Positions 1-58,540 of a stretch of DNA of 64,000 nt are shown here, piece by piece; within the stretch, counting starts at the first letter, position 1; each line of letters begins with the position of its first letter. Position numbers and translations under genes: made by a program. The stretch spans positions 1-64,000 of IMG/VR virus record IMGVR_UViG_3300045999_002371; one strand, given 5' to 3'. The notes beneath the pieces were generated by a model. The model had not been told where the DNA came from. It made no database searches and saw only the letters and a list, made by a program, of their open reading frames with translations. This DNA is from a virus.

Positions 1-30
1 GTGAATCATTCAAAGTGAAAAAAGCGAATC

Positions 31-604
31 GTTGAAACAGGTAACTGGCTTCAACAATAATTTAATAATAAATAAACATCGGTGAAACAACCTGCGAAAG
101 ATTTCCCTTAGTGGACAGTACTTGTGTGACGATCAATTTATTTATTTATTATTCATAGTGACTAAGAAACTGCGATTTATTTATTCGGTATTAGTTATCA
201 CTTAATAACTAGTTACTAAGGCAGAAAGTGTGCGGTCGGACTATACGATGCAATAACACCGAAATAAATAATCGATTCGATCATGCTTGCTACGGCGATG
301 CGAATGTAAAAAAAGTATTTACATTCAAGCGGTATTTCAAGGGCGCGGATTAACGATCACGAAACTGATTGTGAATAGCAGTAGGGCTTAGGGAATGAAG
401 TGTGGAGATCGTCATGTAACTAGTGACGGAATGTCTCTACTAGTGAGTGCAGGTGGTAACCAATCCAACCGATTGCACATTGAAACTAGTTACAACAACA
501 ACGATCAGCACTTCTGCTTATGTGTTAATAGTGATCGATCACCATAAATAGTCAGCGAACTATCTTGGTGATCGATCGCTATGAATACATAACTCGATGT
601 ATTC
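31..604 (+). ncRNA. Candidate large structured non-coding RNA / structured leader (may extend left of the window)
   Basis: No ORF before 643. Nested long stems (64-76/141-153, 173-189/258-274, 302-310/318-326, 518-544/566-592 with G-T wobbles), a GTAA (GNRA) loop at 41-44 and a c(TACG)g loop near 290. Confidence 0.45.
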
Positions 605-642
605 AATTCCACTAGTAACTACAAAAGGAAACGGAATAAAAA

Positions 643-816
643 ATGAAACAACAAACATTCATTGATGCAAAGGGCAACATCGTTGCTCGTGGTCGTATTA
701 CTGAGATCGCTATCGATCTACTACTAAATGACGGAACTCGCTTCTACTCAACTAAATCAGATAACTACACACTCGACTTCATCAAACAACTAGACATCGT
801 AAAGGTAACTAAGTAA
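643..816 (+). CDS. Small hypothetical protein, 57 aa (MKQQTFIDAKG...), not in ORF track
   Basis: Manual translation; AAAGGA-type RBS upstream; TAATG coupling to the next ORF. Confidence 0.7.
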   Translation: MKQQTFIDAKGNIVARGRITEIAIDLLLNDGTRFYSTKSDNYTLDFIKQLDIVKVTK

Positions 817-932
817 TGACGATCATTCTTGATTGCGCTATCTGCGCTAAACCTTCAACCGATTTATGGTTCGTAAAACTAAATGACAAACCTGCTCTTA
901 TTTGCCGACTATGTAATGGAGAAACTAAATGA
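816..932 (+). CDS. Tiny zinc-finger protein, 38 aa (CAIC...CRLC), not in ORF track
   Basis: Manual translation; two CxxC motifs; translationally coupled on both sides. Confidence 0.6.
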   Translation: MTIILDCAICAKPSTDLWFVKLNDKPALICRLCNGETK

Positions 933-1225
933 CAACAACTCGCACTTCTAACGCAAAGGCTGGCGATCTAATTGTTGATCGCGTTGCATTCACAGGTAAC
1001 AACCTCTACGGCGTTCTTACTCGTTACGATGAGGTTGTTCACTTAATCGGTCAATTACCGATCGAGTTTGAACAACAACTAAAACTAGATAAACCCGATT
1101 TCATTGTGTACTCGTATAACACTCCAATCGCTTGGCATTCTGACAAGGGCTGGTTTATTCCTGAGGTTAAGTACTCAGTTACAACATCAAAACATCAAAA
1201 CTATGTACGAAGGGCGGTTGCATAA
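929..1225 (+). CDS. Hypothetical phage protein (YSYNTPIAW...YSVTTSKHQ motif)
   Basis: GGAG RBS, ATGA overlap; the YSYxTxIA...SxTTxxH pattern is typical of a widespread small phage family. Confidence 0.75.
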   Translation: MTTTRTSNAKAGDLIVDRVAFTGNNLYGVLTRYDEVVHLIGQLPIEFEQQLKLDKPDFIVYSYNTPIAWHSDKGWFIPEVKYSVTTSKHQNYVRRAVA

Positions 1226-1226
1226 C

Positions 1227-1514
1227 ATGGGTCGACTACACGCAGAAGAGTTAGCAAGCGGTGAGTTTGTTCCTACTATTGAACAACAGATCGCAATTCA
1301 CTTCTCTAGTAATTGCTATCCACCTGTTCCACACATCATGATTGAAACTGCTATTGAAGCGATCAATCACTACAACGCTGGTTGGATTAACGAACTGATC
1401 TCGTTACCTGACGGAGTTACTTATCAGGGCAGAGATTCTGCTCGTGCTTACAAGATCATCGAGAACTTTCGTCTCGATGCATGGATAGATAGTGAGGTTA
1501 CTCAACTTGATTAG
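1227..1514 (+). CDS. Hypothetical protein (start reassigned to MGRLHAEE)
   Basis: ATG at 1227 directly follows the upstream stop; HFxxNCYPPVP motif. Confidence 0.7.
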   Translation: MGRLHAEELASGEFVPTIEQQIAIHFSSNCYPPVPHIMIETAIEAINHYNAGWINELISLPDGVTYQGRDSARAYKIIENFRLDAWIDSEVTQLD

Positions 1515-1605
1515 CATTCTTATTCTTGCGGTTATCGCTGGCGTTATTGGCGTATTACTTGAAAACCTATTTCACGAACTCTCACAAAAGAATCGGGGTA
1601 TCTAA
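1507..1605 (+). CDS. Tiny single-pass membrane protein, 32 aa, TTG start
   Basis: Manual translation ISILILAVIAGVIGVLL...; GAGG RBS; coupled to the ORF at 1605. Confidence 0.5.
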   Translation: MISILILAVIAGVIGVLLENLFHELSQKNRGI

Positions 1606-1871
1606 TGAGCCAATTCAATCTCGATGAACTCGGATTACTTCACACAATGGTTGAGTTAGCACTCGACAACGCACTCGAACAGGGTGCGCCACAACAGATC
1701 GTTGCGGTACTTCAATCTTCTCTATCAAAGATCGAATCTCGTATTGAAGAAGAGTGCAACATCTTCAATTCATTTCAAGAACTAACTACGCAACTCGATG
1801 ATCTGCACCTTGCATCAAAGATCATTGTGAAAAACCCTGATGCAGTTACAACCGACTACCAAACAAACTAA
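1605..1871 (+). CDS. Hypothetical protein
   Basis: ORF track; operon context. Confidence 0.7.
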   Translation: MSQFNLDELGLLHTMVELALDNALEQGAPQQIVAVLQSSLSKIESRIEEECNIFNSFQELTTQLDDLHLASKIIVKNPDAVTTDYQTN

Positions 1872-1895
1872 TCACCTAGAGAAAACGGAAACCAA

Positions 1896-2777
1896 ATGAC
1901 TACAGAAAACAAGACCCTGTTCGTTCCTACATTGGAAAAGACATCGCACTACATTCCACGCACCTTCGCTGGTGGCGTTACAGAAGATGCGATGTACGAC
2001 TTCGCACAAACTAACAACATGAACATCTTGATCGAAGGCGATGCTGGAACTGGTAAGACAACATCAGCACTTGCTTACGCATCAAAGCGACACATGAACT
2101 TCTTCGCTGTTCCATGTAACTCAGCGATCGACTTCACTCAGTTAATCGGTGGCTTGTTCCCTGATGCTGACGGCAAACTAAAGTGGGTTGACGGCGCGAT
2201 CACAAAGATCGTTCGTGAGGGTGGCTTGCTACTGATTAACGAACTCAACAACGCACCTAAGAACCTGTCTCAGTACCTCATGAGCCTTCTCGATGATCGC
2301 CGTTCAATTACATTGATGTCACATGACAACGAAGTAATCAACGCACACCCTGATCTTCTAGTCGTTGCAGATCAAAATCCAAACTATCGTGGCACTCAGT
2401 TACTTAATGAGGCGTGGAAAGATCGCTTCGAAGTTAAATTGCGATTCGACTACGACACCACCATTGAGAAGAAGATCATCACATCTTCATCTCTACTGGA
2501 ACTTGCAAACGGAATGCGATCAACATCTCGCAGAGAAGATCACGCATCAGATCGTGGAACTATCTTCGAGACACCTGTATCACCACGCATTCTAAAAACA
2601 TTCGAGAAGTTAGCAAAGGGCTTGTCATTCGAGTTTGCTTGCGATGTATTCGTAAACAACTTCACAGATGAAGAGCGACCTGCGGTCAAGATGCTTCTTG
2701 AAGGTACTTCATACAACATTCGAGAAGAACTCGGACTCGATGTTGATGCGATCACAACTGAACACGCAACGGCTTAA
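1896..2777 (+). CDS. MoxR/CbbQ/CobS-like AAA+ ATPase
   Basis: Walker A GDAGTGKT, WVDG motif, Walker B variant LLLINE, NPNYRG, DRF arginine-finger region; adjacent to a vWA gene. Confidence 0.9.
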   Translation: MTTENKTLFVPTLEKTSHYIPRTFAGGVTEDAMYDFAQTNNMNILIEGDAGTGKTTSALAYASKRHMNFFAVPCNSAIDFTQLIGGLFPDADGKLKWVDGAITKIVREGGLLLINELNNAPKNLSQYLMSLLDDRRSITLMSHDNEVINAHPDLLVVADQNPNYRGTQLLNEAWKDRFEVKLRFDYDTTIEKKIITSSSLLELANGMRSTSRREDHASDRGTIFETPVSPRILKTFEKLAKGLSFEFACDVFVNNFTDEERPAVKMLLEGTSYNIREELGLDVDAITTEHATA

Positions 2778-2779
2778 CA

Positions 2780-4780
2780 ATGTGTGCCTGTGGTAAATGT
2801 CCGTCATGTAAACGAAATGGAGTAACTGTGAACTATCACGATGCTATTGAAGAGTGGGAACTCGACATACTTGGTGAAACTCGTGAGTCACTACGATCAC
2901 AAGCGATCAAGGCAGAAGAGAAGAAGCAACGACTAGAGAGATTCACACAATTCTTTGGTCGTGTTAATTCTGCATTCACTTTTCGTAAAGTGACTGTGAC
3001 TGTTGAGAACTCGGCTATGGAAGCACCTGCTTGGTCAGGTGCATCAACTGTCACTTTCAACTCTCGTGTTATTGGTGATCTCAACGATGCTAAATCAATC
3101 GCTGGTATCAAGGGTCTTGATCTTCACGAGATCAGTCACATCTTGTACACATCTCGTGAGGGCTCAGAACTCTTCGACTATGTACGAGATAACAATTACT
3201 TCATGGCATACAACGCACTTGAAGATCAGAGAATCGAAACTCTCTTTACGGCTAAGTATCCGTCAACGATCGATTGGTTTACTGCCACGATCTTGATTCA
3301 CTTCGTTGATAACAAAGAGGCTTTCACTAACTCTTATCCGCTATTGCGTGGTCGTAGGTACTTGCCTGTTGATCTAAGAGCGCAATCTCGTAATGCCTAT
3401 CCTGAACAAGATCAGATCGATGAAATCTGTGCAGTAGTCGATGAATACCGCACTCTTCTATTCCCTGCTGATACTGAAAAAGGAAAGGAACTTATTGCGC
3501 GATTTAATGAGTTACTTCCAAAAGGTAATGGCTCAGGCAACGGCTCAGGTAGTGGCGATAGTGGGTCTGTACGCCCTGCTGGTGCTGGTCAAGAAGGTGA
3601 CTGTGTCATTCGTATCAATGACCCATTCGGTCACGGCAAACGACCACAAGAGGGCTTGGAATCGTCTGCTAACTCACGACCTGTTCCACCAAAGAAGCAG
3701 GAAAAAGATCGTGATCGCTCACAACAACTCGACAAAGAAGATGATGCACAACTGGCTGAACAATTAAAATCAAAACCTGTTATCGATGTTGACATCAACG
3801 ACATTGATTTCGATCTTGATTTCGATGATCTTGATTCAGATCAGGATTCAGATCAGGATTCTGATTCAGATCAATCTTCTAATTCTGCTGGTGATTCTGC
3901 TGGCGAGTTAATCGATACATTGATTAGTGATCTATTAGAAAACATTCTTGATTCTAATGAAACTGAAATCAATGACATCTTGCGACAGATTGGTGGTCTG
4001 CCTTCTCTTACTACCAACAATTCAAAAGAGCCTGAGTTAGATTCATTCCGCGACTTAGCCCCTGATGCAAATACCTTTCAAGCATCGTTGTCATTCGGTC
4101 GTGAGTTAGAGCGATTGAGATCGTCATTCGACCCTGCATGGGATAAATACGAATCACAAGGTCGCTTGTCTGCACATCGCTACTTGCGTGGTGATGATCT
4201 CGATACTGTATTCGATCAATGGAATGAAGGTCGTGAAGATGCGACTGAGATCGAATGCGTGATCTTGTTAGACAACTCAGGTTCAATGTCAGGACACAAA
4301 GCCTCTAGTGCGTACAAAGCCATGTACGCAATTAAGAAGGCACTTGATCGCGTTAATGCAAACACAACTGTTATCACTTTCAATGATCGTGCTAACACTT
4401 TGTATCGTGCAACTGATCGTGTCGGTAACACAATTCGTGATGCTGGTACTGGTGGTGGCACAACTGCTGACGGCGCAATTCAGTACGCAACTAAATTGCT
4501 TGCTGAAACTGAAAAGCCTGTACGAATCTTCTTCGCAATTACTGACGGAGAATGGTCGGGCGATCAGAGAGACAATCACGAAACAATCAAGCGCATGGCT
4601 CGTGCTGGTGTGCTTACTGCATTCGCGTACATTCCTGAAAGTACCGAACCTGTTGAACTAAACGCAGAGAAGTCTCACTATTGCGAGATCGCTTCTGTAA
4701 TTCGTAATCCATTCGATCTTGTTTACATGGCGAAATCAATCGTGAAGTACGCGATCTCTCGCCGTCTCGTAAACAACTAA
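2780..4780 (+). CDS. CobT-like protein: N-terminal HExxH metallopeptidase-like domain, acidic linker, C-terminal vWA domain
   Basis: HEISH, NALEDQRIE, MIDAS DNSGS...T...TDG. The true start may be GTG 2828. Confidence 0.88.
   Translation: MCACGKCPSCKRNGVTVNYHDAIEEWELDILGETRESLRSQAIKAEEKKQRLERFTQFFGRVNSAFTFRKVTVTVENSAMEAPAWSGASTVTFNSRVIGDLNDAKSIAGIKGLDLHEISHILYTSREGSELFDYVRDNNYFMAYNALEDQRIETLFTAKYPSTIDWFTATILIHFVDNKEAFTNSYPLLRGRRYLPVDLRAQSRNAYPEQDQIDEICAVVDEYRTLLFPADTEKGKELIARFNELLPKGNGSGNGSGSGDSGSVRPAGAGQEGDCVIRINDPFGHGKRPQEGLESSANSRPVPPKKQEKDRDRSQQLDKEDDAQLAEQLKSKPVIDVDINDIDFDLDFDDLDSDQDSDQDSDSDQSSNSAGDSAGELIDTLISDLLENILDSNETEINDILRQIGGLPSLTTNNSKEPELDSFRDLAPDANTFQASLSFGRELERLRSSFDPAWDKYESQGRLSAHRYLRGDDLDTVFDQWNEGREDATEIECVILLDNSGSMSGHKASSAYKAMYAIKKALDRVNANTTVITFNDRANTLYRATDRVGNTIRDAGTGGGTTADGAIQYATKLLAETEKPVRIFFAITDGEWSGDQRDNHETIKRMARAGVLTAFAYIPESTEPVELNAEKSHYCEIASVIRNPFDLVYMAKSIVKYAISRRLVNN
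3833..3874 (+). repeat. GATTCAGATCAG tandem repeat encoding a DSDQ acidic linker
   Basis: Direct reading of the sequence. Confidence 0.8.
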
Positions 4781-4801
4781 CTGTCACTCTCTAGGTGACT
4801 C

Positions 4802-4841
4802 GGTGTGGTGCGTTACTTGTGGAAGGCTGGCGCACCACACC
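4802..4841 (+). terminator. GC-rich hairpin after the vWA gene (terminator or processing stem)
   Basis: GGTGTGGTGCG...CGCACCACACC inverted repeat; weak U-tract. Confidence 0.55.
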
Positions 4842-4874
4842 ACTTAAACAATTACAACTAAGGAGAATAAATAA

Positions 4875-5492
4875 ATGAAATCAGCAGAACTCAAAGTAGG
4901 TATTAAGTACGGCGTTATTCCTTCATGGGATTATTCATCGCAAGATAAGAAAGACCCGACAAAGGTGCAACGCAGAGCCGTTGCTCAGGCAGAGTTAGTC
5001 TCACTAGAAAAATACGAATACAAGGTGTATCGATCAGATAATCCTGATGATGCACAATTTACTTCTGCACCAAAGGGAAGTAGATCAGTCGGTTACATCG
5101 TCAAATCTTCTGATTGGGCTGGTGCTACACAAGGTGACATCTACTGGATAGCAAGAGCGCAAGACATCGTTGCTGAGTATGCAACTCTTGAAACTCGTTG
5201 GTCTAAGGAAGAAGCCGAAGAGAAACTTCGTGAGGCTCAATGGAAGGCAGAACGCGAAGCCAAAGAACAACAAGAGAAGATCGAGAAAGATAATGCTCAG
5301 CGATCTATTGATGCGGTTAAAGAATCGCTTCGATCAATTATCGGTAGTCGTGCAGACAAACTCGACTTCGAGATTCGCAATCGCCGTCAAGAAAACGGCG
5401 AATACAAACTAAGCGGTGCTTGCACTATCGATGTACGCACTCTTCAATCACTAATCGAGAAGGTTCTCGAAGCGAGAGACATGGTGGCATAA
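4875..5492 (+). CDS. Hypothetical protein with C-terminal coiled coil
   Basis: AAGGAG RBS; ORF track. Confidence 0.8.
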   Translation: MKSAELKVGIKYGVIPSWDYSSQDKKDPTKVQRRAVAQAELVSLEKYEYKVYRSDNPDDAQFTSAPKGSRSVGYIVKSSDWAGATQGDIYWIARAQDIVAEYATLETRWSKEEAEEKLREAQWKAEREAKEQQEKIEKDNAQRSIDAVKESLRSIIGSRADKLDFEIRNRRQENGEYKLSGACTIDVRTLQSLIEKVLEARDMVA

Positions 5493-6197
5493 ATGAGTTA
5501 CTTCTTAGATCGATTCGTAGCGATTCAAGATAAGTACTACAAGAACTATCAAGGCAGTACGCATTACTCGACATGGTTGCGTAACAAACGATTCGACAAC
5601 ATGATCGAACTAAAACAATTACCGAATACCTATCAAGAGATTGAGTACAAGGGGCATTCGATCATTGTGCAGGGCATTCACTATCAATGGTGCGACATCG
5701 TTGATGTGTATGGAAATCCATTTACTAGCACACCTTATGTGTCGGACATAGGAGATCGTGGTGAAATGCAATTCAGCACGATCTTTCTTGCATGGGCTTG
5801 GCGCATTGACGGCGTTGGTGCAGATAAGCCGTTGAACTGGAATAGTGAACACGCAGTTATCTGTGGCAGTCATTCATCAGACAAGATCGAGAAAACGATC
5901 AAACTCGCAAAGAAGCGCATTGATCTTGAAGCAAAGATCGTTGCGGTTCAAGATCAACTGATCGCTATGGCTGATGAACGAATGGCTTACTCAACGGACA
6001 TGAGGGCATTCGTTCCATACAACGCCGTAGTTAACGATCAGGTGTTTATTCAGGGTCATGGTCGGTTGCGTAAGGGCTTAATCGTTGACACAACTGGATC
6101 ACGATTTATTGTCGCTTATGTAACTCCCTCTAATCATCATGATCTGAAATACAAGACACTTCCACTTAGTCGCTTATACATAAAGGAGAATGCGTGA
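5493..6197 (+). CDS. Hypothetical protein
   Basis: ORF track; coupled to neighbours. Confidence 0.75.
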   Translation: MSYFLDRFVAIQDKYYKNYQGSTHYSTWLRNKRFDNMIELKQLPNTYQEIEYKGHSIIVQGIHYQWCDIVDVYGNPFTSTPYVSDIGDRGEMQFSTIFLAWAWRIDGVGADKPLNWNSEHAVICGSHSSDKIEKTIKLAKKRIDLEAKIVAVQDQLIAMADERMAYSTDMRAFVPYNAVVNDQVFIQGHGRLRKGLIVDTTGSRFIVAYVTPSNHHDLKYKTLPLSRLYIKENA

Positions 6198-6670
6198 CAA
6201 CTAAGAGCCGAAAGTCTGCTAAAACTTTACAAAGAGAAGCAGACTTAGCACTTGGCGTACAACAATGCGCTAAGTGTGATCATGTGTTTCCACTAAGTAA
6301 CTTTCGATCTGCAAAAACTAAATCAGGAGTTACTTCGTACTGCAAACCTTGCGAAGAGCAATACAAGTTTGAATGGCACTTGAAGCGCAGATTAGAGATC
6401 AAGAACTGGATTTATCACCACTTGAAAACTAATCCTTGCGTTGATTGTGGCGAGAGCGATGTACTCGCACTCGACTTCGACCATGTAAAGGGCGCAAGGA
6501 AGCGTTACAACATCGCTCATGCCTTCATGATAAGTGGCATGACGATCAAGAGATTACAAACTGAGATCGCAAAGTGCGATGTCCGTTGCGGTAAGTGCCA
6601 CAGAATCCGTACACACATGGCTAGTAAGTCATGGAAATACCGAATGGCTATTGAGAAGGGAGATGCTTAA
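6194..6670 (+). CDS. HNH endonuclease with N-terminal zinc finger
   Basis: CAKC...CKPC; CVDCG...LDFDHV...EIAKCDVRCGKCHRIRT. Confidence 0.85.
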   Translation: MTTKSRKSAKTLQREADLALGVQQCAKCDHVFPLSNFRSAKTKSGVTSYCKPCEEQYKFEWHLKRRLEIKNWIYHHLKTNPCVDCGESDVLALDFDHVKGARKRYNIAHAFMISGMTIKRLQTEIAKCDVRCGKCHRIRTHMASKSWKYRMAIEKGDA

Positions 6671-6841
6671 TTGTTAACTCGTAGAGGTTGGATAGTGCTG
6701 GTAATTATTCCTGCATTGATCTTGGTATCACTATTTACTTATGCAACTCGTGATGTCTGCTATGTGGGCAAGGGTGGCAACTTCTTGGGCTATGGCTCAT
6801 GTACAAAGATGATCGATGAAGTGATTGGGGGAAACAAGTGA
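6671..6841 (+). CDS. Small membrane protein, 56 aa (LTRRGWIVLVII...), not in ORF track
   Basis: Manual translation, TTG start, GGGAG RBS, LTRRG followed by a transmembrane helix. Confidence 0.6.
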   Translation: MLTRRGWIVLVIIPALILVSLFTYATRDVCYVGKGGNFLGYGSCTKMIDEVIGGNK

Positions 6842-7056
6842 TCGCAACTGTAAAAGAGACGATCGAGATTCTGCAACGCAACTATGGGAATGCACTTGAT
6901 GAGACACTCGTAGTTACTTGGTGGGATTCGAAAGACTTCGAAGAGATGTCAGATGATGCAATTAACATCTGTGACGATGCACTCGATGTCTGTGTAGGTC
7001 ATGTCAACGATACTGTTTGGCAGAATGCAAAGATGCTGAATGAGGGAGAAGAATAA
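6838..7056 (+). CDS. Hypothetical protein
   Basis: ORF track; GTGA overlap. Confidence 0.65.
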   Translation: MIATVKETIEILQRNYGNALDETLVVTWWDSKDFEEMSDDAINICDDALDVCVGHVNDTVWQNAKMLNEGEE

Positions 7057-7221
7057 ATGGCTACATACACAATAACTGCCGAAGTAGATCAACAATGGTT
7101 CGACATACTCGGTCAGATAACAAGACACCAAGACGGATTCGTATGGTGTGATGTAACTACAACTGATGATCGTGTATTACGAACTGCATCAGACGGAACT
7201 CAATTCTTAGGAGACAACTAA
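7057..7221 (+). CDS. Small hypothetical protein, 54 aa (MATYTITAEV...)
   Basis: Manual translation; coupled on both sides. Confidence 0.6.
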   Translation: MATYTITAEVDQQWFDILGQITRHQDGFVWCDVTTTDDRVLRTASDGTQFLGDN

Positions 7222-7385
7222 TGGGATACGCACAGATCATTCGTAGGGTAGAAGCCCACGAACTAACTAATTGCGATGATTGCGGGAATGATGAACTTAC
7301 TTCATCAGGCAGATTCATAACTGATTCAAGCCACCAACCTGTTATTTGGTTCTGCTTTAACTGCATACAGAAAACAACAAGATAG
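7221..7385 (+). CDS. Small zinc-finger protein, 54 aa (CDDC...WFCFNC)
   Basis: Manual translation; AGGAG RBS. Confidence 0.65.
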   Translation: MGYAQIIRRVEAHELTNCDDCGNDELTSSGRFITDSSHQPVIWFCFNCIQKTTR

Positions 7386-7389
7386 ATTT

Positions 7390-7646
7390 ATCGAGCAGGG
7401 GTCAACATAGGGTTCAATCGGGTTAATTCATTTCCCGACTCCTTACCTATGAAGGGCGATCATGATCGCATTCGATAGTTACGGCGTAGTCGTACCTGCC
7501 CCTGCTTGATTCCACTATTGGTAGAGATCATCGACACCTAGCAGACTACGGCAGACTGAAAAGGTGTTATGAAAATCTTGCAAGATCGTTGATGCACAAA
7601 TAGGTCAACGCACGACATCGTTCTACTTCTCGATGATCTCTACCAA
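7390..7646 (+). ncRNA. Two tandem ~120-130 nt multi-branched structured elements (candidate ncRNAs)
   Basis: Outer stems 7390-7404/7497-7510 and a perfect 17-bp stem 7518-7534/7630-7646, each enclosing three hairpins. Confidence 0.5.
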
Positions 7647-7674
7647 CTATTCAATTACCTAGAGAGGGTTACAC

Positions 7675-7848
7675 ATGGAAACATCACCACTATTTACAGT
7701 AGAAGAAAAGAATCTGATACTCAATGCACGATTCGTACATGGTGAATCGTTGCAGAGCGTTGCTGATCGATTCGGTACAACTCGTAAACTAATTCGTCAA
7801 GTAGAAAGTAATTACATCAAAATAATGAAGGGGGAAATAAATGAGTGA
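7675..7848 (+). CDS. Stand-alone sigma70 region-4-like HTH peptide, 57 aa, not in ORF track
   Basis: EEKNLILNARFVHGESLQSVADRFGTTRKLIRQVES matches the r4.2 pattern LRF...TLxEVxxxFGVTRERIRQIE; GAGGG RBS. Confidence 0.7.
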   Translation: METSPLFTVEEKNLILNARFVHGESLQSVADRFGTTRKLIRQVESNYIKIMKGEINE

Positions 7849-8182
7849 ACTATCATCACACCAAACTGATCTCATCAAATCAATCACGATCGCTAACGAG
7901 TTTCTAAAGATCGTTCGTGGATTCAAGGTTGATTCTGATCGCAAAGACAGTCTGCCTCAGGAGATCAAGGAGTATCTAGCCAATGAACACTTGAACTCAA
8001 TCATGGAAGATCAAGAGATCGAACCTGAGATGTTGATTTGGGGATTCCTGCACATGATCGAGATTCTCTTGAAGTATGCAGAGTTAGACCCTGAGGACTT
8101 AACCAATGTCATGGACTCTTTCGTGAAGTATGTGATCGAAAACCCTGACCAATACACAGATCGGAGTAAGAATGAAGATTGA
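7841..8182 (+). CDS. Hypothetical acidic protein
   Basis: ORF track; GGGG RBS. Confidence 0.75.
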   Translation: MSELSSHQTDLIKSITIANEFLKIVRGFKVDSDRKDSLPQEIKEYLANEHLNSIMEDQEIEPEMLIWGFLHMIEILLKYAELDPEDLTNVMDSFVKYVIENPDQYTDRSKNED

Positions 8183-8447
8183 GATCATCAACGCACCATG
8201 TCAGTCAGCAGGTATTGACCCTGAACTATTCTTTCCTGACCCGACAGAGTACGAAAAGATTCAGCAAGCAAAATCTGTGTGCGGTCAATGTCCTGAGATC
8301 ACAAAGAATAAATGTCTCTCATTCGCACTAGAGAATGGTGTTCAGTACGGAATCTTCGGCGGTCTAACAGACAAAGAGCGAAACAATTTACGCCGTAGAG
8401 AAAACAGAAAGTACAAGCAGTATGTATCTGTGATTGGAGAGTACTAG
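8172..8447 (+). CDS. whiB: WhiB-family Fe-S transcription factor
   Basis: C...DPELFFP...AKSVCGQCP...C...AL...GIFGG...ER. Confidence 0.93.
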   Translation: MKIEIINAPCQSAGIDPELFFPDPTEYEKIQQAKSVCGQCPEITKNKCLSFALENGVQYGIFGGLTDKERNNLRRRENRKYKQYVSVIGEY

Positions 8448-8569
8448 TGGAGTACGCAAAGAATCAGGTAATCATCGAAGTCAATGGTGGCGTTGCAGAA
8501 GTAACTCGTTGCCCTAGTGACATCGAAGTAATCATCATCGATCACGATAACGAGATCAATGGTGAGTAA
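8447..8569 (+). CDS. Small hypothetical protein, 40 aa (VIIEVNGGVAEV...IIDHDN)
   Basis: Manual translation; GGAG RBS. Confidence 0.55.
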   Translation: MEYAKNQVIIEVNGGVAEVTRCPSDIEVIIIDHDNEINGE

Positions 8570-8747
8570 GTGGTGGAATGTTATCTTCGAAACAGATTCA
8601 ACCAATGTGGTTGATGCACTTCTAACTGTTCAAGTAGAAGCAGATACACCCGATGAAGCAATCATGTTAGGTAGAGAGCGATTCGAAACTCTCGTACTGC
8701 TACACAATAAATGGCAATTTATAGACATCTCAGAAACGAGTAACTAA
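8559..8747 (+). CDS. Small hypothetical protein (VxVEAxTxDEA motif)
   Basis: ORF track. Confidence 0.6.
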   Translation: MVSKWWNVIFETDSTNVVDALLTVQVEADTPDEAIMLGRERFETLVLLHNKWQFIDISETSN

Positions 8748-8908
8748 TGAAAACTATTGAGGACATCGAATACGAGATCGCGTTCATCGAACAAGAACTG
8801 CAATCTAATGAGTTTCCTTATCTCAGCAAAGATCATCTAACTAATTGGCTATCTGCACTTAACTGGGTTAAAACAAAGTGGGATTACGAAAGGACAACTA
8901 ATGCTTAA
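8747..8908 (+). CDS. Small hypothetical protein, 53 aa (MKTIEDIEYE...ALNWV)
   Basis: Manual translation; TAATG coupling. Confidence 0.6.
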   Translation: MKTIEDIEYEIAFIEQELQSNEFPYLSKDHLTNWLSALNWVKTKWDYERTTNA

Positions 8909-9083
8909 TCCAAACGACATAATGCTATTTACTCGTGAAGAGGCGGTTCAACTAAGTGGGCAAGTGCTTACCGATGAACAATGGAAACTAATTAGAAGAG
9001 AGATCGTTACTAACGACACCATGTGGGAAGTAATCGATGAATGTATTCAGAACTCGATCAATGCGGTGCTAGATAATGGTTAA
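8901..9083 (+). CDS. Hypothetical protein
   Basis: ORF track; AAGGA RBS. Confidence 0.65.
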   Translation: MLNPNDIMLFTREEAVQLSGQVLTDEQWKLIRREIVTNDTMWEVIDECIQNSINAVLDNG

Positions 9084-9561
9084 TACATTCTTACCTTTCC
9101 CTGACTTCGTAGAGACTGCCAAAGCACTCGATTACAAGCGATTAGGCAAGCAACGAGTAGAGGCGTGGCAGATACTTCAAGCGTTGCGTGGTGAGACTAA
9201 GGGCTGGACTAATCACCCTGCTACAAAGATGTGGCGTGGTCATGAGCGACTTCTATGTGAATACGGAATCGCAATCTGCAAAGAATGGATTGATCGTGGT
9301 TACAAAGACACCATGCTCGATCGATTCGTTGCGGTGCATTCGTTACTACCTGAATGCGAAGTACCTGTGTGGTTGGGTGATTCGTCATTCCATGAATCTC
9401 ATCAGAGCAACTTAAAACGCAAAGATGCAGATCACTACAACTTCAATGTTGAAAACGATCTTCCCTATTTATGGTTTGATCGAATGCTTGGCAACTTCAA
9501 AGTGTTTACGATTGGAAAAAAACCTAGTGAAACTAAACAGAAAACTGGTGCATCGAATTGA
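9076..9561 (+). CDS. Pyrimidine-dimer DNA glycosylase-like protein (MSMEG_6728/DenV-related)
   Basis: TFLPFPDF...LDYKRLGKQRVEAWQIL...GWTNHPATKMWRG...SHQSNL.RKD family signature. Confidence 0.88.
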   Translation: MVNTFLPFPDFVETAKALDYKRLGKQRVEAWQILQALRGETKGWTNHPATKMWRGHERLLCEYGIAICKEWIDRGYKDTMLDRFVAVHSLLPECEVPVWLGDSSFHESHQSNLKRKDADHYNFNVENDLPYLWFDRMLGNFKVFTIGKKPSETKQKTGASN

Positions 9562-9749
9562 AGGACTGGCTCACTACTACCGACATCGCACAACAAACAG
9601 GGCTAAAGATCGACACGATCTACACCTATCGCAAGCGAAACACCCTTCCCGAACCCGATCACATGATCGGCAATCGACCACTATGGAAGCAAGAAACAAT
9701 CGATGAGTGGAACTCTTATCGCACAACTCAAATAGAAACGGAGAAATAA
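9558..9749 (+). CDS. AlpA/excisionase-like HTH DNA-binding protein
   Basis: LTTTDIA...GLKIDTIYTY...LPEPD..IG.RPLW...TIDEW. Confidence 0.85.
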   Translation: MKDWLTTTDIAQQTGLKIDTIYTYRKRNTLPEPDHMIGNRPLWKQETIDEWNSYRTTQIETEK

Positions 9750-9753
9750 ATAA

Positions 9754-9981
9754 ATGGTTGCAAATGTAATCAGTAGCGAAACATCATCATCAACTCATGT
9801 GATCGAGTTTCCAATGAATGGAAACACTTTCACCGCCAAAGTATTTATTGGTGAGTGGGGCGTTGATGTTGATTGGTTTATTGGTGAGGACTTTATTGCG
9901 ATCGATGATCGCTGGAAGGTTCTGCCAACTGAACTCTATGATCTCGATGATTCGGATTGGGAAGAGATTCTTTATCCATGA
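9754..9981 (+). CDS. Hypothetical acidic protein
   Basis: GGAG RBS; ORF track. Confidence 0.65.
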   Translation: MVANVISSETSSSTHVIEFPMNGNTFTAKVFIGEWGVDVDWFIGEDFIAIDDRWKVLPTELYDLDDSDWEEILYP

Positions 9982-10133
9982 GTACCTACAAAGTAACTTT
10001 CGTATGGACACGATCGATCGAAGTCGAATGCGATTCCGAAGATCAAGCGAATCAACTCGGTGAACTATGGCTATCCGAAGCAGTACCGCAGATAGCCCAT
10101 GACACCGAGTGGGATAGCGAACTCGTTGAGTAA
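9978..10133 (+). CDS. Small hypothetical protein, 51 aa (MSTYKVTFVWTRSIEVECDSEDQA...)
   Basis: Manual translation; ATGA overlap; similar motif to the 8559 ORF. Confidence 0.6.
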   Translation: MSTYKVTFVWTRSIEVECDSEDQANQLGELWLSEAVPQIAHDTEWDSELVE

Positions 10134-10212
10134 CTCTCAGCCCTGATCTGGGGCTATTAGAAGTTACTTCAAGCCCACATAAGCAGATTCCCTAAGCCCA
10201 AAGTCACTATTC

Positions 10213-10248
10213 GCCCCTAGCCCCTGATCGGGCTAGGGGCTATTTTTT
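10213..10248 (+). terminator. Rho-independent terminator
   Basis: GCCCCTAGCCC-N6-GGGCTAGGGGC followed by TATTTTTT. Confidence 0.85.
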
Positions 10249-10257
10249 GCATTCGAA

Positions 10258-10289
10258 GTTACTGGTGAGTAACATTACTCATCAGTAAC
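10258..10289. promoter_or_regulatory. Tandem 16-bp palindromic operator-like sites (RTTACT-N4-AGTAAC x2) upstream of the recombinase
   Basis: GTTACTGGTGAGTAAC followed by ATTACTCATCAGTAAC; the pair is also a 15-bp inverted repeat with 1 mismatch. Confidence 0.6.
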
Positions 10290-10306
10290 ATGAAGGGGGG
10301 AAGATC

Positions 10307-11569
10307 ATGGCTTATGTCGTAAAGCGTGGAGATAGGTTTACAGGCTATTACCGAAAGGGCGGAAAACGCCTTTCAGCAGGTACATGGGGCTCGGAGATCG
10401 ATGCCATGTATCACGCCTCAAAAGCAGAGGCATCGGGCGTTAGCGAGCCTTCTAGGGCTGTATTTACCCTATCGACCTACATCGATTCATGGTTGCCGAC
10501 CGCCGATCTCATGCCGATCACTCGCAAGGGCTATCGGTCAGTCCTTGATCGCTATGTCCTGCCCACTCTCGGAGATCGCAAAGTAACTTCGATCGATAGA
10601 CGGGCGATTCAAGAGTTACTTCAAGGGCTCAGGGGTCAGGGGATAGGTTCAGCCACCCTGAATCAGATCAAGGCATCGCTAGGGTCTGCCCTCTCCCAGT
10701 TAGTCGATACAGGAGAATTAACTCAGAACCCTACTCATGGGATTCGTATTAAGGCGAAACAGTTAGACATCTCGAATGTCGTAGAGCCCGAAGAGTTTAA
10801 GGCGATCATTCAGCACCTACCGACCGAAGGGGCTCAGTTATTCGCCCGATTCTTAGTCGCATCAGGTTGCCGATTCGGGGAAGCCACCGAGATCAGGGTC
10901 AAAGACATCAACCTAAAGACAGGCGAAGTCTATGTCCAAAGGCGAGTCAGCGATCTAGGGTCAAGCCATACCAGCAGGTTTCTAGTCGTAGAAGCCACAA
11001 AGTCGGGTCATAAGCGAAGCCTTATGTTAAGCAAAGCCTTACTACAAGAGATTCAGGGCTATGTCATAGCAAAAGCCCTATCAAAAGATGACCTGTTGTT
11101 CCCAAGAACGATCATCTTAACAACAGGTAAACTAAAGACTTCTCGTGGAGAAATGTCTAAGCGACCATTCGCCCAAGACGGAAAACTGTTCCAGCATGGA
11201 ACTCTGTACGCCTATACACATGGGCGTTGCCGATGTGAGGCTTGCCGAGAGTCGGTGCGAAAGCACAGGCAAAAGGCAAAGCCATACCAAAAGCGACAGG
11301 GATTCATCGACCATACGAGCCACCTACCACGAGATGTATGGAGAACTACATGGAACAAGGCAATAGCCAAGTCAGGCATCGGGTGGAGTCCTAGAACCCA
11401 TGATCTCAGACACGCTAACGCTACCCAACTTCTAAAAAGTGGGGTAGATGTGCATGAGGTCAAGGAACGCTTAGGACATCAGTCGATAAAGACGACAGAG
11501 CGATACCTACATCGCCTTCGTCACAACCAGTCAAAGGCATCAGAAAGTGTCAATGACTTTTTGGAGTGA
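10307..11569 (+). CDS. int: Tyrosine recombinase/integrase with a zinc-finger-like insertion
   Basis: SAM-like N-domain; catalytic R (SGCRFGE), K (TKS), HxxR (HDLRH), H (LGH), Y (TTERY); insertion HGTLYAYTHGRCRCEAC. Confidence 0.92.
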   Translation: MAYVVKRGDRFTGYYRKGGKRLSAGTWGSEIDAMYHASKAEASGVSEPSRAVFTLSTYIDSWLPTADLMPITRKGYRSVLDRYVLPTLGDRKVTSIDRRAIQELLQGLRGQGIGSATLNQIKASLGSALSQLVDTGELTQNPTHGIRIKAKQLDISNVVEPEEFKAIIQHLPTEGAQLFARFLVASGCRFGEATEIRVKDINLKTGEVYVQRRVSDLGSSHTSRFLVVEATKSGHKRSLMLSKALLQEIQGYVIAKALSKDDLLFPRTIILTTGKLKTSRGEMSKRPFAQDGKLFQHGTLYAYTHGRCRCEACRESVRKHRQKAKPYQKRQGFIDHTSHLPRDVWRTTWNKAIAKSGIGWSPRTHDLRHANATQLLKSGVDVHEVKERLGHQSIKTTERYLHRLRHNQSKASESVNDFLE

Positions 11570-12147
11570 TGATGAAACTAACACGAAGAGGCAAGATCGT
11601 ATTCGGATCGCTATTTACGGCGATCTTCGTAGCAAGTGGGGTAGTGGTACTGCCACCAGCCTTCTCGCCTACGAAAGCCGAAGCACAGATCGAGCAGAAG
11701 CAATACCAAAAGCGATACCAAGAGCGAGCCCTAGCCAAGTACGAGAACGCACACAGACTAACTAAGACAGAGTTAGTCAACCTGCTTCACGCAGTTGGCT
11801 TCGAAGGGCAAGCCTTACGCTATGCGTGGGCTATCGCTATGAAGGAATCAAGAGGAAACCCTCTCTCCCACAACGGCAATCGAGAGACAGGGGATAACTC
11901 ATTCGGGTTATTCCAAGTCAACATGATTGATTCATTGGGACAAGATCGTAGGGACAAGTTCAGTTTGGAGTACAACGCCCAACTGTTGAATCCTGTGGTC
12001 AATGCTCAGATTGCTTATCACATGAGCAATCAAGGCAAGAACTGGAGAGCATGGAAAGGTGTCAACAACTCAGTAGTCAAAGAGTGGTTGAAGCAGTTCC
12101 CTGAGTCTCGTGCTAAAGCACTAGCAAAAGGAAAAGCAACAGAGTAA
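11566..12147 (+). CDS. Membrane-anchored/secreted lytic transglycosylase (lysozyme-like fold)
   Basis: LTRRG plus N-terminal TM helix; catalytic AMKES motif, GLFQVN, LLNPVVNAQIA, W..W. Confidence 0.85.
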   Translation: MMMKLTRRGKIVFGSLFTAIFVASGVVVLPPAFSPTKAEAQIEQKQYQKRYQERALAKYENAHRLTKTELVNLLHAVGFEGQALRYAWAIAMKESRGNPLSHNGNRETGDNSFGLFQVNMIDSLGQDRRDKFSLEYNAQLLNPVVNAQIAYHMSNQGKNWRAWKGVNNSVVKEWLKQFPESRAKALAKGKATE

Positions 12148-12158
12148 GCAATAGGAGA

Positions 12159-12187
12159 AGCCCCGTCAGAAATGGCGGGGCTATCTT
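12159..12187 (+). terminator. Hairpin/terminator with GAAA loop
   Basis: AGCCCCGTCA-GAAA-TGGCGGGGCT. Confidence 0.65.
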
Positions 12188-12238
12188 CGAAGTAACTCTA
12201 CCTGGCAGCCAGGTGAGTTAGTTAGTTAGGGGGCGAAC

Positions 12239-12655
12239 ATGGCAAGTGGCGGTATGCAGGACTGGCAGTCAATGAGCCATAGCAAAGCAAAGCCATACCA
12301 GAAGCCATACCAGAAGCAAGAGCAGTTCCCAAAGGAATACCACAAGGACAAGCAGTGGGTTCAAGACGAACTGCCCTTTACCGATAAGCCTTGGCGTGAG
12401 AGATCTCTTACTGATACTGAAGTAGAAGAACTCTTTTGGCGCGATTTAGTTCAGTTAGGCTGGAAGTTTCAAGCCTATGGAGAGAACCCAAGAAGCAGGA
12501 ACATTGTGTTGCCTTGCCCATACTGTGAGTTAGTTATTGATAGCCACACCATCATCACAGAGTCAAATGCCAAGAAGATGAAAGACAAGTATTACTGCGA
12601 GCAGATCCTTAGAAAGCACAAGGGTCTTGAATGCAAAGCCATACTAGAAGACTAA
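12239..12655 (+). CDS. Hypothetical protein (CPYC motif; KPYQ repeats arise from the DNA repeat)
   Basis: AGGGGG RBS; ORF track. Confidence 0.6.
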   Translation: MASGGMQDWQSMSHSKAKPYQKPYQKQEQFPKEYHKDKQWVQDELPFTDKPWRERSLTDTEVEELFWRDLVQLGWKFQAYGENPRSRNIVLPCPYCELVIDSHTIITESNAKKMKDKYYCEQILRKHKGLECKAILED

Positions 12656-12704
12656 GCAATAGCAAAAGCCCTACCAAAAGGCAGGGCTTCCGCTTTGTAT
12701 TGCT
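12655..12704. terminator. Hairpin between convergent transcription blocks (probable bidirectional terminator)
   Basis: AAGCCCT..CC-AAAA-GG..AGGGCTT, extended by AGCAATA/TATTGCT. Confidence 0.65.
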
Positions 12705-12707
12705 AGA

Positions 12708-14744
12708 TTACTTAGGTTGATTGTCTGTAATTAGTTTTACTTCGCAAGCATCAGTTGTGCAGTAAGCCTCACCAATAGCATCAGCAGCCATTCCTGCATA
12801 GACACCAGAGAAGTCAATAGGGAACAGTTGCATTACGCCCTGCTCTTCGTACTCCTTCTCAGTGATCTGTGTGTATGGCATCTGAGGATAGACATGGTTA
12901 CCACTAGGCAAGAATGAAACAGTCTTAAGTTGACCATCGTACATATGCAAAGCCGTACCAATAGCCGAGGCTTCCTTCTCTGGATCAAATGAGATCGTTA
13001 CAGAGACAGAGTTATCTGACCAATAGCGTTGAGCAGTAGCAGCAAGTGCCATCTTCTCGTAGATACTTACATCCTTCTCACTTCGCTTTGCATCAGACTT
13101 GATAGGGAAGAAGACAACGGAAGTCGTATCAGGAGACTCACTTGCTGGTTCTACTCTGTAGTTAGCAAGTTTGAATAGTGGAAGCATTGGATCGTTGTTT
13201 GAGAAACGAATTGCACGATTGAAGTACTGACCACCTACAGTCCAGTGAACTCCTGGAGATTCTCCAGCAAGGATCGAAACTGTTCCTGATGGCTTAACTG
13301 TTGTCATCTTGATTGACTCACGGATACCAAGCCACTCTGAGTAGTTGGTGTCGTATGACTTGATGACTTTGTAGCCTTCATCCATCCATTGACGCAGGAC
13401 TGGAAGTCCCTTGTTGTCTGCAAAGTTTGCAACACCAGAGACTGATGTACCGATGCGACGATTGCGTTGCATGATTGCGTTGGTCTCTTCCCAGTGAGTT
13501 GGAAGAAGTGTCACAGTCTTTGCGTAGAGATAGGCGAACTTCAATGTGCGCTTGAAATCTTCAAGGTCTGTGTGACGATTGAGATAGGTCTCTACCAATG
13601 TGCAGCACTCGTAGGACTCTAGTGATTGCTCAGCACATGGGTTATACCCTGCAATACGCCAGTCCTTGTTGTTGATTGGATCAGCAAGGCGACCATATTG
13701 CTTGGAGATGTCCATCCAAATAACTCCTGGCTCTCCATTGCGAGCAATACCTTCGATGATCCCATCAAGGTTATCGCCCACGTTGACAGCCACAGAGTTG
13801 TTAGACATCCAGCCATGAGTCATACGCTCTGGATACTTCTCGTAGTTCTTTAGGTTCAAGAACTCTTCATCATCGATGCGACCGATCAATAGTTCTGCAG
13901 AGCGACGGACGTTGCCAGATACAACGCATACACCGATCATGTTGCCGATGTCTGCGATGTCACGACGAGTCAACTTCTGACCAGCACGATCCTTGAATAG
14001 GTCATGGATGTACTGGTGCATCTTGATTAGCGGGTCTGCTCCTGCTGCTGTGCCACCGAAGGTGCGGATTGGTTCGCCTGCTGGACGGATCGCTTCGTAA
14101 TTAAATATTGGAGTCTTCGTATCTGGCTTGAGGTAGGCATTGATGAGGGTGGCTGTTGATTCAACCCAACCCTCTCTGGTGTCTGGGATGTCATAGGCGT
14201 ATTCTCCTTGTGGTGCATAGATGATGAACTCTTTGTCTGCTCCCTTGTCATCAAAGCCCACACCGACTCCGAGCATTGATGCCTCCATGAGGAATGCGAA
14301 AGGCTTTGCTGGATCTGTCTTGACCATCGATCCAGTTGAGACGAAGGCACAGTTCTGCAACGCTGCAGAGTTGCGATGCTCATTGACTAGTGGGGTTCCC
14401 ATAACCCATAGACCTCGTCCAGGTGGTGTCCACTTCAAGTTCCATAAGCGATCGAATGCTTCTTTGGCTGAGGCTGCTGCCTTTGCATCTGACCATGGCA
14501 AACGGTTTGTCTTTGCGTGATCCTTCTGTAATGAGTACATGCCGTTGATGACTCGTTCACATACATCAACCCATGTCTCCTTCGTACCATCTGCCTTGAG
14601 GCGAGAATAGGTACGCAAGAAAGTAATCTCTCCCACTGAGTTGCCCGCTGCATCTTGATAACCGAACGGCGCTTTCTTTGAGCGATACGGTCCAATGAAA
14701 TCCTCAGTCAGTTTGAAAGATAATGTTGTCATAACCCCTACCAT
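12708..14744 (-). CDS. nrdJ: Class II (adenosylcobalamin-dependent) ribonucleotide reductase
   Basis: RTYSR, PPGRGLW, ALQNCAF, GNVRRSA, NPCAEQ, TVKPSGT, C-terminal CTTDAC. Confidence 0.95.
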   Translation of the reverse strand: MVGVMTTLSFKLTEDFIGPYRSKKAPFGYQDAAGNSVGEITFLRTYSRLKADGTKETWVDVCERVINGMYSLQKDHAKTNRLPWSDAKAAASAKEAFDRLWNLKWTPPGRGLWVMGTPLVNEHRNSAALQNCAFVSTGSMVKTDPAKPFAFLMEASMLGVGVGFDDKGADKEFIIYAPQGEYAYDIPDTREGWVESTATLINAYLKPDTKTPIFNYEAIRPAGEPIRTFGGTAAGADPLIKMHQYIHDLFKDRAGQKLTRRDIADIGNMIGVCVVSGNVRRSAELLIGRIDDEEFLNLKNYEKYPERMTHGWMSNNSVAVNVGDNLDGIIEGIARNGEPGVIWMDISKQYGRLADPINNKDWRIAGYNPCAEQSLESYECCTLVETYLNRHTDLEDFKRTLKFAYLYAKTVTLLPTHWEETNAIMQRNRRIGTSVSGVANFADNKGLPVLRQWMDEGYKVIKSYDTNYSEWLGIRESIKMTTVKPSGTVSILAGESPGVHWTVGGQYFNRAIRFSNNDPMLPLFKLANYRVEPASESPDTTSVVFFPIKSDAKRSEKDVSIYEKMALAATAQRYWSDNSVSVTISFDPEKEASAIGTALHMYDGQLKTVSFLPSGNHVYPQMPYTQITEKEYEEQGVMQLFPIDFSGVYAGMAADAIGEAYCTTDACEVKLITDNQPK

Positions 14745-38761: not shown

Positions 38762-39523
38762 TTAAATTCCCATTTCTTTTCGTTTTTGTGTTGCAGAAAT
38801 AGCCTGAATCTCTTGAGAAAGTTCAACTTGCTCAATCTTGTACCCAACATCTCGTCCGTAGACGATGTTCGTTATGTTTGGGAATCTTAGGACCATAGCG
38901 TTTTTCATTGCTAGGTCTTTGTCAATGTAGGACTTTACTTGATCAAAAGTTAATGGATCCTTCTCACTGGTTCCGTAGGTGTTACGAACACCGAGAACTA
39001 CTTGATCGGTTCTCTTTCCAGCCTCATTGTAGAGGGCGTGGTGTCCTTCATGCCACGGTTGATAGCGACCAAGCATAAGTGTTGTAGGAGCAGACCAGTC
39101 GTGCAAACCAAAATGCTTTATGATTTGTGTAGCCTTTTGAGCCTGGTTTAATTCGTGGTCGTTATAGATTACGTCAAAGTTAACTGGCTTTTCAAACATC
39201 TTGTTGGTGTCTTCAAACCTACTCTCTTGAATGGTGTTCATCCAAATAAGAATGTCTGGCTTACCAAATGCTGCACGAGTTAGGTCGGTTGGACATACAA
39301 AATCCACAATAACTGGAGCAACACCTTGTTTAGAAATGAGTCTTGCCATCTCACCCATACGACGTGCTTGCTCAATACGGTCGTCAACGGTAAACCCTAG
39401 ATCAGAGTTTACTGTTGCACGTACCTCATCTGCATTCAGGTGAATAGCATTAATTCTTTCCTTTAGTGTTTTTGCTAATTCAGTTTTACCTGATCCAGGC
39501 AATCCAATTATTTGAATTATCAC
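38762..39523 (-). CDS. Adenylylsulfate (APS) kinase-like domain fused to an HxGH nucleotidyltransferase domain
   Basis: GLPGSGKT, NADEVR...DLGF...DR....RR; GRYQPWHEGH. Confidence 0.82.
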   Translation of the reverse strand: MIIQIIGLPGSGKTELAKTLKERINAIHLNADEVRATVNSDLGFTVDDRIEQARRMGEMARLISKQGVAPVIVDFVCPTDLTRAAFGKPDILIWMNTIQESRFEDTNKMFEKPVNFDVIYNDHELNQAQKATQIIKHFGLHDWSAPTTLMLGRYQPWHEGHHALYNEAGKRTDQVVLGVRNTYGTSEKDPLTFDQVKSYIDKDLAMKNAMVLRFPNITNIVYGRDVGYKIEQVELSQEIQAISATQKRKEMGI

Positions 39524-39526
39524 TTG

Positions 39527-39835: not shown

Positions 39836-39964
39836 TCTTATTCTCCTCTAGTAGTTTTCTTATTTGTTTTTGTAAAAAGATGTTCTCTCTCCAAAACAAA
39901 CCCATCACAGTTACTGAACCAGCAAGTGCAATAATGATTGCAATCATTGTCCCTGTATCTAAAA

Positions 39965-41523: not shown

Positions 41524-41532
41524 GTTGTGCCC

Positions 41533-41802: not shown

Positions 41803-41812
41803 GACCTGGAGC

Positions 41813-43753: not shown

Positions 43754-43766
43754 AGACTATTGCTCC

Positions 43767-44159: not shown

Positions 44160-44160
44160 T

Positions 44161-44733: not shown

Positions 44734-44800
44734 GCTGTACTTCCTTCCAGACCTTGAGGTCTATTTTCTCTGGTTTGCCCCATATTTACTGCCTGAACTA

Positions 44801-58519: not shown

Positions 58520-58540
58520 GATCTCTCCCTATCTTTCGTA

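Follow-up and report, generated by a model that had tools for sequence, protein, structure and literature searches.

A sharply bounded block free of dozens of restriction motifs may be the leading end of an actinophage-type genome from lake water

Why would a virus clear restriction sites from one stretch of its genome, at the expense of its own proteins, and leave them in place everywhere else? The question is raised by the first 64,000 nucleotides of IMG/VR virus record IMGVR_UViG_3300045999_002371 (hereafter the window), a single virus contig of 76,311 bp from a lake-water metagenome. The initial annotation of the window had reported that GCNGC, GGNCC and CCNGG are missing from positions 1-12200 and had proposed that only this segment is exposed to host restriction. 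Analysis of the whole contig and of its relatives shows that a block of 12-14 kb, and no other part of the genome, is free of about 30-40 restriction motifs, on both strands, in coding and non-coding DNA, with consequences for the encoded proteins. These features suggest that the block forms the leading end of the DNA packaged by a myovirus of about 95 kb, and that it plausibly enters the host first.

The three motifs have no site in 1-12200, as had been claimed; they first occur at 12205, 14689 and 12201, respectively, and number 183, 59 and 108 sites in the remainder of the 76.3-kb contig, right end included. The purge is nonetheless much wider than these three, and the effect had been understated. 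Among the 324 REBASE motifs testable in this segment (expectation of at least 6), 43 are missing, against none in any of the five equally long control windows; once nested motifs are set aside, the missing set amounts to about 30 (a greedy count of independent degenerate motifs over-split nested ones and serves as a rough check only). Judged by the density outside, the block should hold 32 sites each of ACGT and CCATC, 25 of CCNNGG, 24 of GGNNCC, 22 each of CASTG and GCTCC, 19 each of GGATG and ATAT, 18 of CTYRAG and 14 of GWGCWC, and it holds none. Other missing motifs include GGCC, RGATCY, RGCGCY, CGWCG, GKGCMC, CAACAC, GAAGAC, GACGC, GGYRCC, RAATTY and CAGNNNCTG.

When synonymous codons were shuffled among the 17 block genes, with protein sequences and codon usage kept, 300 shuffles gave a mean of 332 sites for 31 motifs (minimum 290), against the 0 observed. 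The codon-shuffled null, which had been called for when the depletion was first described, and the control windows uphold it, and the same depletion genome-wide, which had been named as a possible refutation, is excluded by control windows that lack no motif and by a remainder that keeps its sites. Within the block, asymmetric motifs are lacking in both orientations, and the 642-bp non-coding leader is likewise purged, which places the constraint on double-stranded DNA rather than on RNA or protein.

Proteins nevertheless bear the cost. Across 3046 residues of block proteins, Ala-Ala is never found (16.5 expected), nor are Gly-Pro and Pro-Gly (5.2 expected each), in agreement with the earlier observation; Trp-Pro and Pro-Trp are also missing from the same residues, and outside the block Ala-Ala is at expectation (115 observed versus 114 expected). 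Synonymous choice alone is therefore insufficient to account for the purge. The set of plus-strand proteins first described, from 643 to 12655, stands for the genes up to 12147; its last member, at 12239-12655, lies outside the purged domain. Alignment of the block-encoded AAA+ ATPase with its homologue in Gordonia phage Gray bears out the rewriting of conserved motifs that had been proposed from the sequence: the Walker A motif reads EGDAGTGKT here, EGETGTGKT in a relative (G002, introduced below) and EGPTGSAKT in the Gray protein, and WVDGA stands here in place of WVDGP in the latter. Dipeptide loss and rewritten motifs together support selection strong enough to alter proteins, and illustrate how far restriction can reach into them, with forbidden dipeptides and a replaced Walker A proline.

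The block is not an artefact of assembly. A contig from an independent sample (X2) spans positions 10017-13268 with 0 differences, and the join at 12200 is common to 18 relatives, which rules out a chimeric assembly at that position and, with it, the suggestion that the left 12 kb might be a chimeric join. Position 1 of the window is not a genome end, since Logan contigs continue leftward and match relative G001; the first 38 bases of the window have no exact match in IMG/VR. Of the limits originally given to the domain, the right edge at 12200 therefore holds, and the left edge at position 1 is only the end of the contig, the purge running further in G001 (Table 1).

As had been suggested, we looked for the domain in related phages, and it recurs. 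An IMG/VR search with the von Willebrand A (VWA) protein of the block retrieved 18 related loci at 51-94% protein identity, each of which has a comparable block, bounded on either side by a sharp step; the contigs that contain these blocks measure 87-97 kb. For a nine-motif core set, gaps of 10-14 kb occur in 13 of the 18 loci, with 10-17 sites per kb in the flanks. Three of the relatives are complete circular assemblies of 94.7-97.4 kb, from which it follows that the genome measures about 95 kb and that the present contig is without about 20 kb of it; in relatives, the terminase, the portal and an 889-residue protein are encoded there, along with small genes.

The motif sets differ between lineages. 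Five genomes were studied in full, namely the present contig (G000) and relatives G001-G004. Purged from the block in all five are GCNGC, CCWGG, GGNCC, CASTG, GGATG, RGCGCY, CAGNNNCTG, CTGCAG and CATTGC. ACGT, ATAT, GGCC, CCATC and CCNNGG are purged in four of the five and have a normal frequency in G002; GTNNAC, GATGC and CATCG are purged in G003 and G004, TGCA (72 expected), GTAC and ACTGG solely in G003, and CAACAC in the present genome alone. Because this turnover is always confined to the block, it points to restriction repertoires that differ and still exert selection, not to an inherited composition, and it supports, together with conservation in relatives, the earlier proposal of selection against restriction sites on this block alone. 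A few words are enriched in the block of G000-G002: in the present genome GATC (158 versus 54 expected), TCGA (110 versus 30), CGATCG (11 versus 1) and GANTC (74 versus 35) are over-represented, and the enrichment of these words across the three genomes is two- to three-fold.

A second tier of motifs is avoided along the whole genome. AGCT (about 244-305 expected) and CCGG (65-108 expected) have 0 sites across the whole of all five genomes, G003 and G004 also lack GATC throughout (about 280 sites expected), CGCG falls about tenfold below expectation in G000 and G001, and G002 has a single AGATCT against 31 expected; CCGG is present in two other lineages (loci L007 and L018). This second tier could reflect self-avoidance of a phage-borne nuclease, or enzymes that escape phage protection. 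The absence of AGCT and CCGG implies that the remainder is not fully shielded, and the idea that the rest of the genome is protected later survives only in part: the remainder does keep sites of the purged motifs, yet AGCT and CCGG genome-wide, and GATC in two lineages, contradict full protection.

Both borders of the block carry conserved, distinctive DNA. In relatives, the left edge lies inside a non-coding block of about 300 bp that is conserved in all lineages even though neighbouring proteins are only about 50% identical, and from which genes diverge in both directions. Its elements follow in the order GGCTACTGCC, CACCTGGC (which holds the last site), TTAATGGTGGGGGGG, the inverted repeat CACCTGACTACTAATCAGGTG, and repeated TTATCAGGT and TGGTGAC words. 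The leader of about 2.3 kb in relatives starts at this conserved element (TTAATGGTGGGGGGG ... CACCTGACTACTAATCAGGTG ... GTTGTTATCAGGT), beyond the present contig. In the extended leader of G001, about 1.7 kb left of window position 1, two antisense open reading frames (ORFs; 125 and 149 residues) carry CxxC...CxxC zinc-ribbon motifs, so that the block is not purely one-stranded.

At the right edge, the purge ends at a palindrome preceded by a GC-rich hairpin (Table 1). The same word, TTCGAAGTWACT, follows both terminator-like hairpins of the block (10241-10262 and 12182-12200). An oriented array of AAGCCATACCAGAAG-like 15-mers straddles this edge: 14 of the 17 matches in the window lie in 10963-12964, against 1.9 expected for the whole window. 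The array runs through the integrase gene, the transglycosylase gene and the next gene, occurs at the same border in G001-G004, and possibly represents integrase arm sites or an entry-stop signal. Repeats common to both borders are merely 10-11-mers, at chance level, and excision or inversion through border repeats was rejected on this ground. Contig ends were considered as a proxy for termini and proved uninformative: among 20 IMG/VR contigs with the conserved palindrome they scatter (+99, +231, +613), and one starts at the border.

Taken together, these observations are best accommodated, with a probability of roughly 0.6, if the packaged DNA of an actinophage-type myovirus of about 95 kb has the block at its leading end, as a single-copy analogue of the first-step-transfer region of T5. 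Under this reading, virion DNA would have fixed ends and a short terminal repeat, one of these ends coinciding with the conserved element (TTAATGGTGGGGGGG ...) at the left edge of the purge. It would be the first to enter, and the block genes would be transcribed inward by the host polymerase. Entry or exposure would then halt at the inner border, marked by the terminator hairpin and the oriented 15-mer array, and block products would make the cell harmless to the remaining 80 kb or so by means other than ordinary DNA methyltransferases. Candidates for such products are the MoxR-VWA pair, the HNH nuclease, the WhiB-like factor and six small acidic proteins. For a few specificities (AGCT and CCGG, and GATC or CGCG in some lineages) neutralization would fail, and these motifs would have been removed from the whole genome instead. 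None of the five genomes encodes a DNA methyltransferase (PF00145, PF01555, PF02086), QueC or TGT, which fits a T5-like, modification-independent protection of the remainder.

The precedent comes from two groups of cultured phages. T5-like phages are restricted only through sites in the first-step-transfer region, which ends in a repeat-rich border, and the protection of the remaining genome is still unexplained (PMC10644984). The present block resembles that of T5 and BF23 (Tequintavirus), which comprises about 10 kb of early host-takeover genes including an HNH endonuclease gene. In both cases the inner border is repeat-rich; the T5 record has a rho-independent terminator at 9275-9296 inside the stop signal (iss, 9140-10149), of which the hairpin at 12160-12181 and the 15-mer array are possible counterparts here. 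Outside the block, sites persist in T5 and in the present phage alike. The differences are also substantial. The T5 block lies inside a 10.2-kb terminal repeat, whereas the present one is single-copy, as flat depth indicates; virion type and terminase are unrelated; and some motifs are avoided genome-wide in the present phage as well. The T5 purge is far weaker, with 6 of 222 testable motifs missing (4, 0, 0 and 0 in controls) against 43 of 324 here (0 in five controls). First entry was demonstrated experimentally for T5, whereas here we infer it.

In T7-like phages, restriction sensitivity is set by motifs in the early-injected (class I) region only (PMC12455610). Transcription of that leading region runs inward, starting at the end that enters, as far as a terminator, a role that the hairpin at 12160-12181 may play here. 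Unlike T7-like phages, the present phage yields no Ocr-like first gene in Pfam, PHROG or NCBIfam searches, and the published T7-like cases concern Type I motifs rather than the dozens of Type II-like motifs purged here. Moreover, the rest of the present genome is transcribed in the opposite direction, so that transcription could not pull the remainder in.

The closest terminases are those of the Streptomyces phages BRock and LuckySocke, which are 54% identical to that of the present family. The LuckySocke record has the same 344 bases at its start and end, a direct terminal repeat, and a gene block of about 10.5 kb at its right physical end (39100-50000) that is transcribed inward and converges on the rest of the genome. 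This terminal block is without nine asymmetric CTTC/GAAG-type motifs (7-16 expected each), whereas three control windows lack none, and it may be a fainter form of the present purge in a cultured phage whose ends are known. Together with the conserved elements at both edges of the present block, the terminal repeat and terminal block of LuckySocke lend indirect support to first entry. The inward-transcribed terminal block of LuckySocke and BRock thus has its counterpart here, the conserved left-edge element occupying the position of the physical end, whereas in gene content LuckySocke shares only one block gene, the WhiB-like one, which is located elsewhere in its genome. Gordonia phage Gray, the source of a CobT homologue, was considered as a carrier of the purged domain, and no such domain was found in it; a megablast search of the block against cultured phages gave no match.

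Several observations weigh against a leading end modelled on T5. The circular assemblies of the complete relatives close through overlaps of 123-127 bp that are uninformative on ends. Contig depth is flat across 12200, with an inside/outside ratio of about 1.13-1.15 in two samples, and no second copy of the block exists in the contig; a T5-style long terminal repeat collapsed in assembly, for which the ratio would be 2 rather than about 1.15, is thereby ruled out. Searches with tblastn of T5 A1, A2 and dmp against the five genomes gave no match at E <= 0.01. With a block that is not duplicated and no A1 or A2 homologues, the present phage is not a member of the T5 system and could only be its functional analogue. 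Cultured relatives LuckySocke and Gray show no palindrome purge, the integrase beside the 15-mer array means that the array may be read as recombinase arm sites, and the remainder must be exposed to at least some cutters, given that AGCT and CCGG are missing from the whole genome. Finally, searches of Pfam, PHROG and NCBIfam found no known anti-restriction family, except for a weak match of the HNH/zinc-ribbon protein at 6194-6670 to the Lar-like restriction-alleviation family.

Three other explanations can be envisioned. The whole genome might enter at once with about 80 kb physically shielded, for example by co-packaged basic proteins, and the block left naked for transcription. This scheme would account for the normal site densities of the remainder, the lack of a phage methyltransferase and the fact that palindromes beyond the block are just mildly low (the Markov observed/expected ratio is, for example, 0.54 for GGCC and 0.70 for ACGT). 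We consider it unlikely, in that packaging or DNA binding by such proteins is without support, the coat would need to end, lineage after lineage, at a border defined to the nucleotide, and the removal of AGCT and CCGG from the coated part would be left unexplained.

Slightly less probable still is a covalent base modification of the remainder by phage enzymes, in which case the unmodified block must lose its sites. In its favour stand the minus-strand gene at 14904-16409, whose product falls in phrog_887, labelled queuine tRNA-ribosyltransferase (2e-58), and glycosyltransferase-like genes at 65-68 kb. The 501-residue product is a full-length member of phrog_887, the label of which is doubtful: Pfam, NCBIfam and PDB sequences give no support for a transglycosylase, and these three resources and the ESM Atlas give none for an identification as DpdA. 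PF01702 and PF06508 have no match in the five genomes and do match control genomes, and the lack of QueC, TGT and DNA methyltransferase noted above also tells against modification. The split between genome-wide and block-only motifs ignores base composition. The two tiers are alike in this respect (CCGG versus GGCC; AGCT and GATC versus ACGT, TGCA and GTAC), and ATAT is devoid of both G and C, so base modification cannot account for the tolerance of particular motifs outside the block; nor does any known mechanism spare one contiguous 14 kb from post-replicative modification.

Very improbable, finally, is a separately acquired or mobile module from a donor that avoids these sites genome-wide, its purge inherited rather than presently selected, because, despite the tyrosine integrase at the inner end, the oriented repeat array at the border and the faster divergence of block proteins than of replication proteins (40-62% versus 65-85% identity to G003 and G004), the same block, borders and border elements occur in all 18 relatives down to 51% identity, motif sets have changed within the family yet stayed confined to the block, which needs ongoing local selection, no repeats flank the block, and tail genes diverge as fast as block genes.

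A broader reading can be sketched, which is tentative and which we rate, for all its parts jointly, a little below even. A widespread family of lake actinophage-type myoviruses would have evolved staged entry independently of T5. Its single-copy leading block of about 14 kb would stop at a defined cis signal, and the products of the block would blind the cell to most Type II restriction, with the phage DNA unmethylated. The motifs erased in each lineage would then be a direct record of the restriction enzymes in the uncultured host population, and those erased genome-wide would mark shield-escaping enzymes or phage-carried nucleases.

Genetics with T5 and T7 relatives established that only the DNA entering first needs to be site-free, and in these phages the mark left in the sequence is faint. 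No account of a purge that spans many motifs, rewrites proteins and varies by lineage turned up in our literature searches. Here, in uncultured phages, the limits of the exposed block can be read from sequence alone, to within a few bases. The pattern offers a computational signature for staged entry in metagenomic phages, a lineage-by-lineage readout of the restriction repertoire of uncultured freshwater hosts, and a short list of about 20 genes that should include a general, methylation-independent restriction switch-off, which is unexplained even for T5.

The gene content of the phage points to an actinobacterial host. The remainder of the genome is of myovirus type and encodes NrdJ, RecA and a family A polymerase. 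For NrdJ, the terminase and the VWA protein alike, the nearest relatives in culture come from phages of Actinomycetota, and capsid relatives (49-69% identity, none a close match) reside mostly in Actinomycetota genomes, which makes such a host likely. WhiB-like factors, one of which is encoded in the block, are a marker of actinobacterial phages. The CobT-like VWA homologues in Gordonia and Brevibacterium phages also adjoin AAA ATPases. All block genes of the contig lie on the plus strand and nearly all genes in 12708-76311 on the minus strand, with a few small plus-strand stretches as exceptions (for example, 65116-67924). The six acidic block proteins have no family match and are candidates for DNA-mimic or other anti-defence roles; no Ocr or ArdA match was found in Pfam, PHROG or NCBIfam. 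Rfam and tRNA scans of the block returned nothing significant, a promoter scan was uninformative, with fewer sigma-70-like matches than in shuffles, and no promoter-like words common to the intergenic gaps of the block were found. Features of the block and its right border are collected in Table 1.

Table 1. Positions of genes and DNA elements in and next to the site-free block of the window.
Feature	Coordinates	Strand	Evidence and remarks
Restriction-site-free domain	1..12200		left side cut by contig end; about 1.66 kb more in relative G001
ORF-poor leader, site-free	1..642	+	part of leader of about 2.3 kb in relatives
MoxR/CobS-like AAA+ ATPase	1896..2777	+	Pfam AAA_5 1.7e-19; Walker A GDAGTGKT, GP-containing form replaced
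CobT-like von Willebrand A protein, ATPase partner	2780..4780	+	Pfam VWA_2 4.3e-10, CobT_C 1e-5
HNH / endonuclease VII-like zinc-ribbon protein	6194..6670	+	phrog_2255 2.5e-29, phrog_5558 3.2e-8
WhiB-like transcription factor	8172..8447	+	phrog_14459 4.6e-18; tblastn match to LuckySocke WhiB gene
Pyrimidine-dimer DNA glycosylase (DenV-like)	9076..9561	+	Pfam Pyr_excise 2.7e-22
Six small acidic proteins	1605-1871, 6838-7056, 7841-8182, 8559-8747, 8901-9083, 9754-9981		isoelectric point 4.0-4.4, net charge -7 to -14
Intrinsic-terminator-like hairpin, strong, upstream of integrase gene	10213..10240	+	11 pairs, then T run
Tyrosine recombinase / integrase	10307..11569	+	Pfam Phage_integrase 3.9e-25; phrog_1 6.5e-50
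Oriented array of 14 AAGCCATACCAGAAG-like 15-mers	10963..12964	+	straddles right edge; coding and non-coding DNA
Lytic-transglycosylase-like protein, hydrophobic N-terminus, last gene in domain	11566..12147	+	Pfam SLT_3 8.6e-19
GC-rich hairpin GCCCCG..CGGGGC	12160..12181	+	ends 19 bases before first restriction-type site; conserved in G001 and G002
Palindrome CCTGGCAGCCAGG, right edge of purge	12201..12213		first CCNGG and GCNGC sites
First gene beyond domain, carries restriction sites	12239..12655	+	no family match (Pfam, PHROG)

Local motif gaps also occur in the tail-fibre region (57300-64000 and the rest of the contig), where CATCG, ACGAG, GANTC and TCGA are missing over 3-4.5 kb near collagen-like fibre genes; similar gaps for CATG, GATC and TCGA are seen in relatives, and they probably reflect repeat composition.

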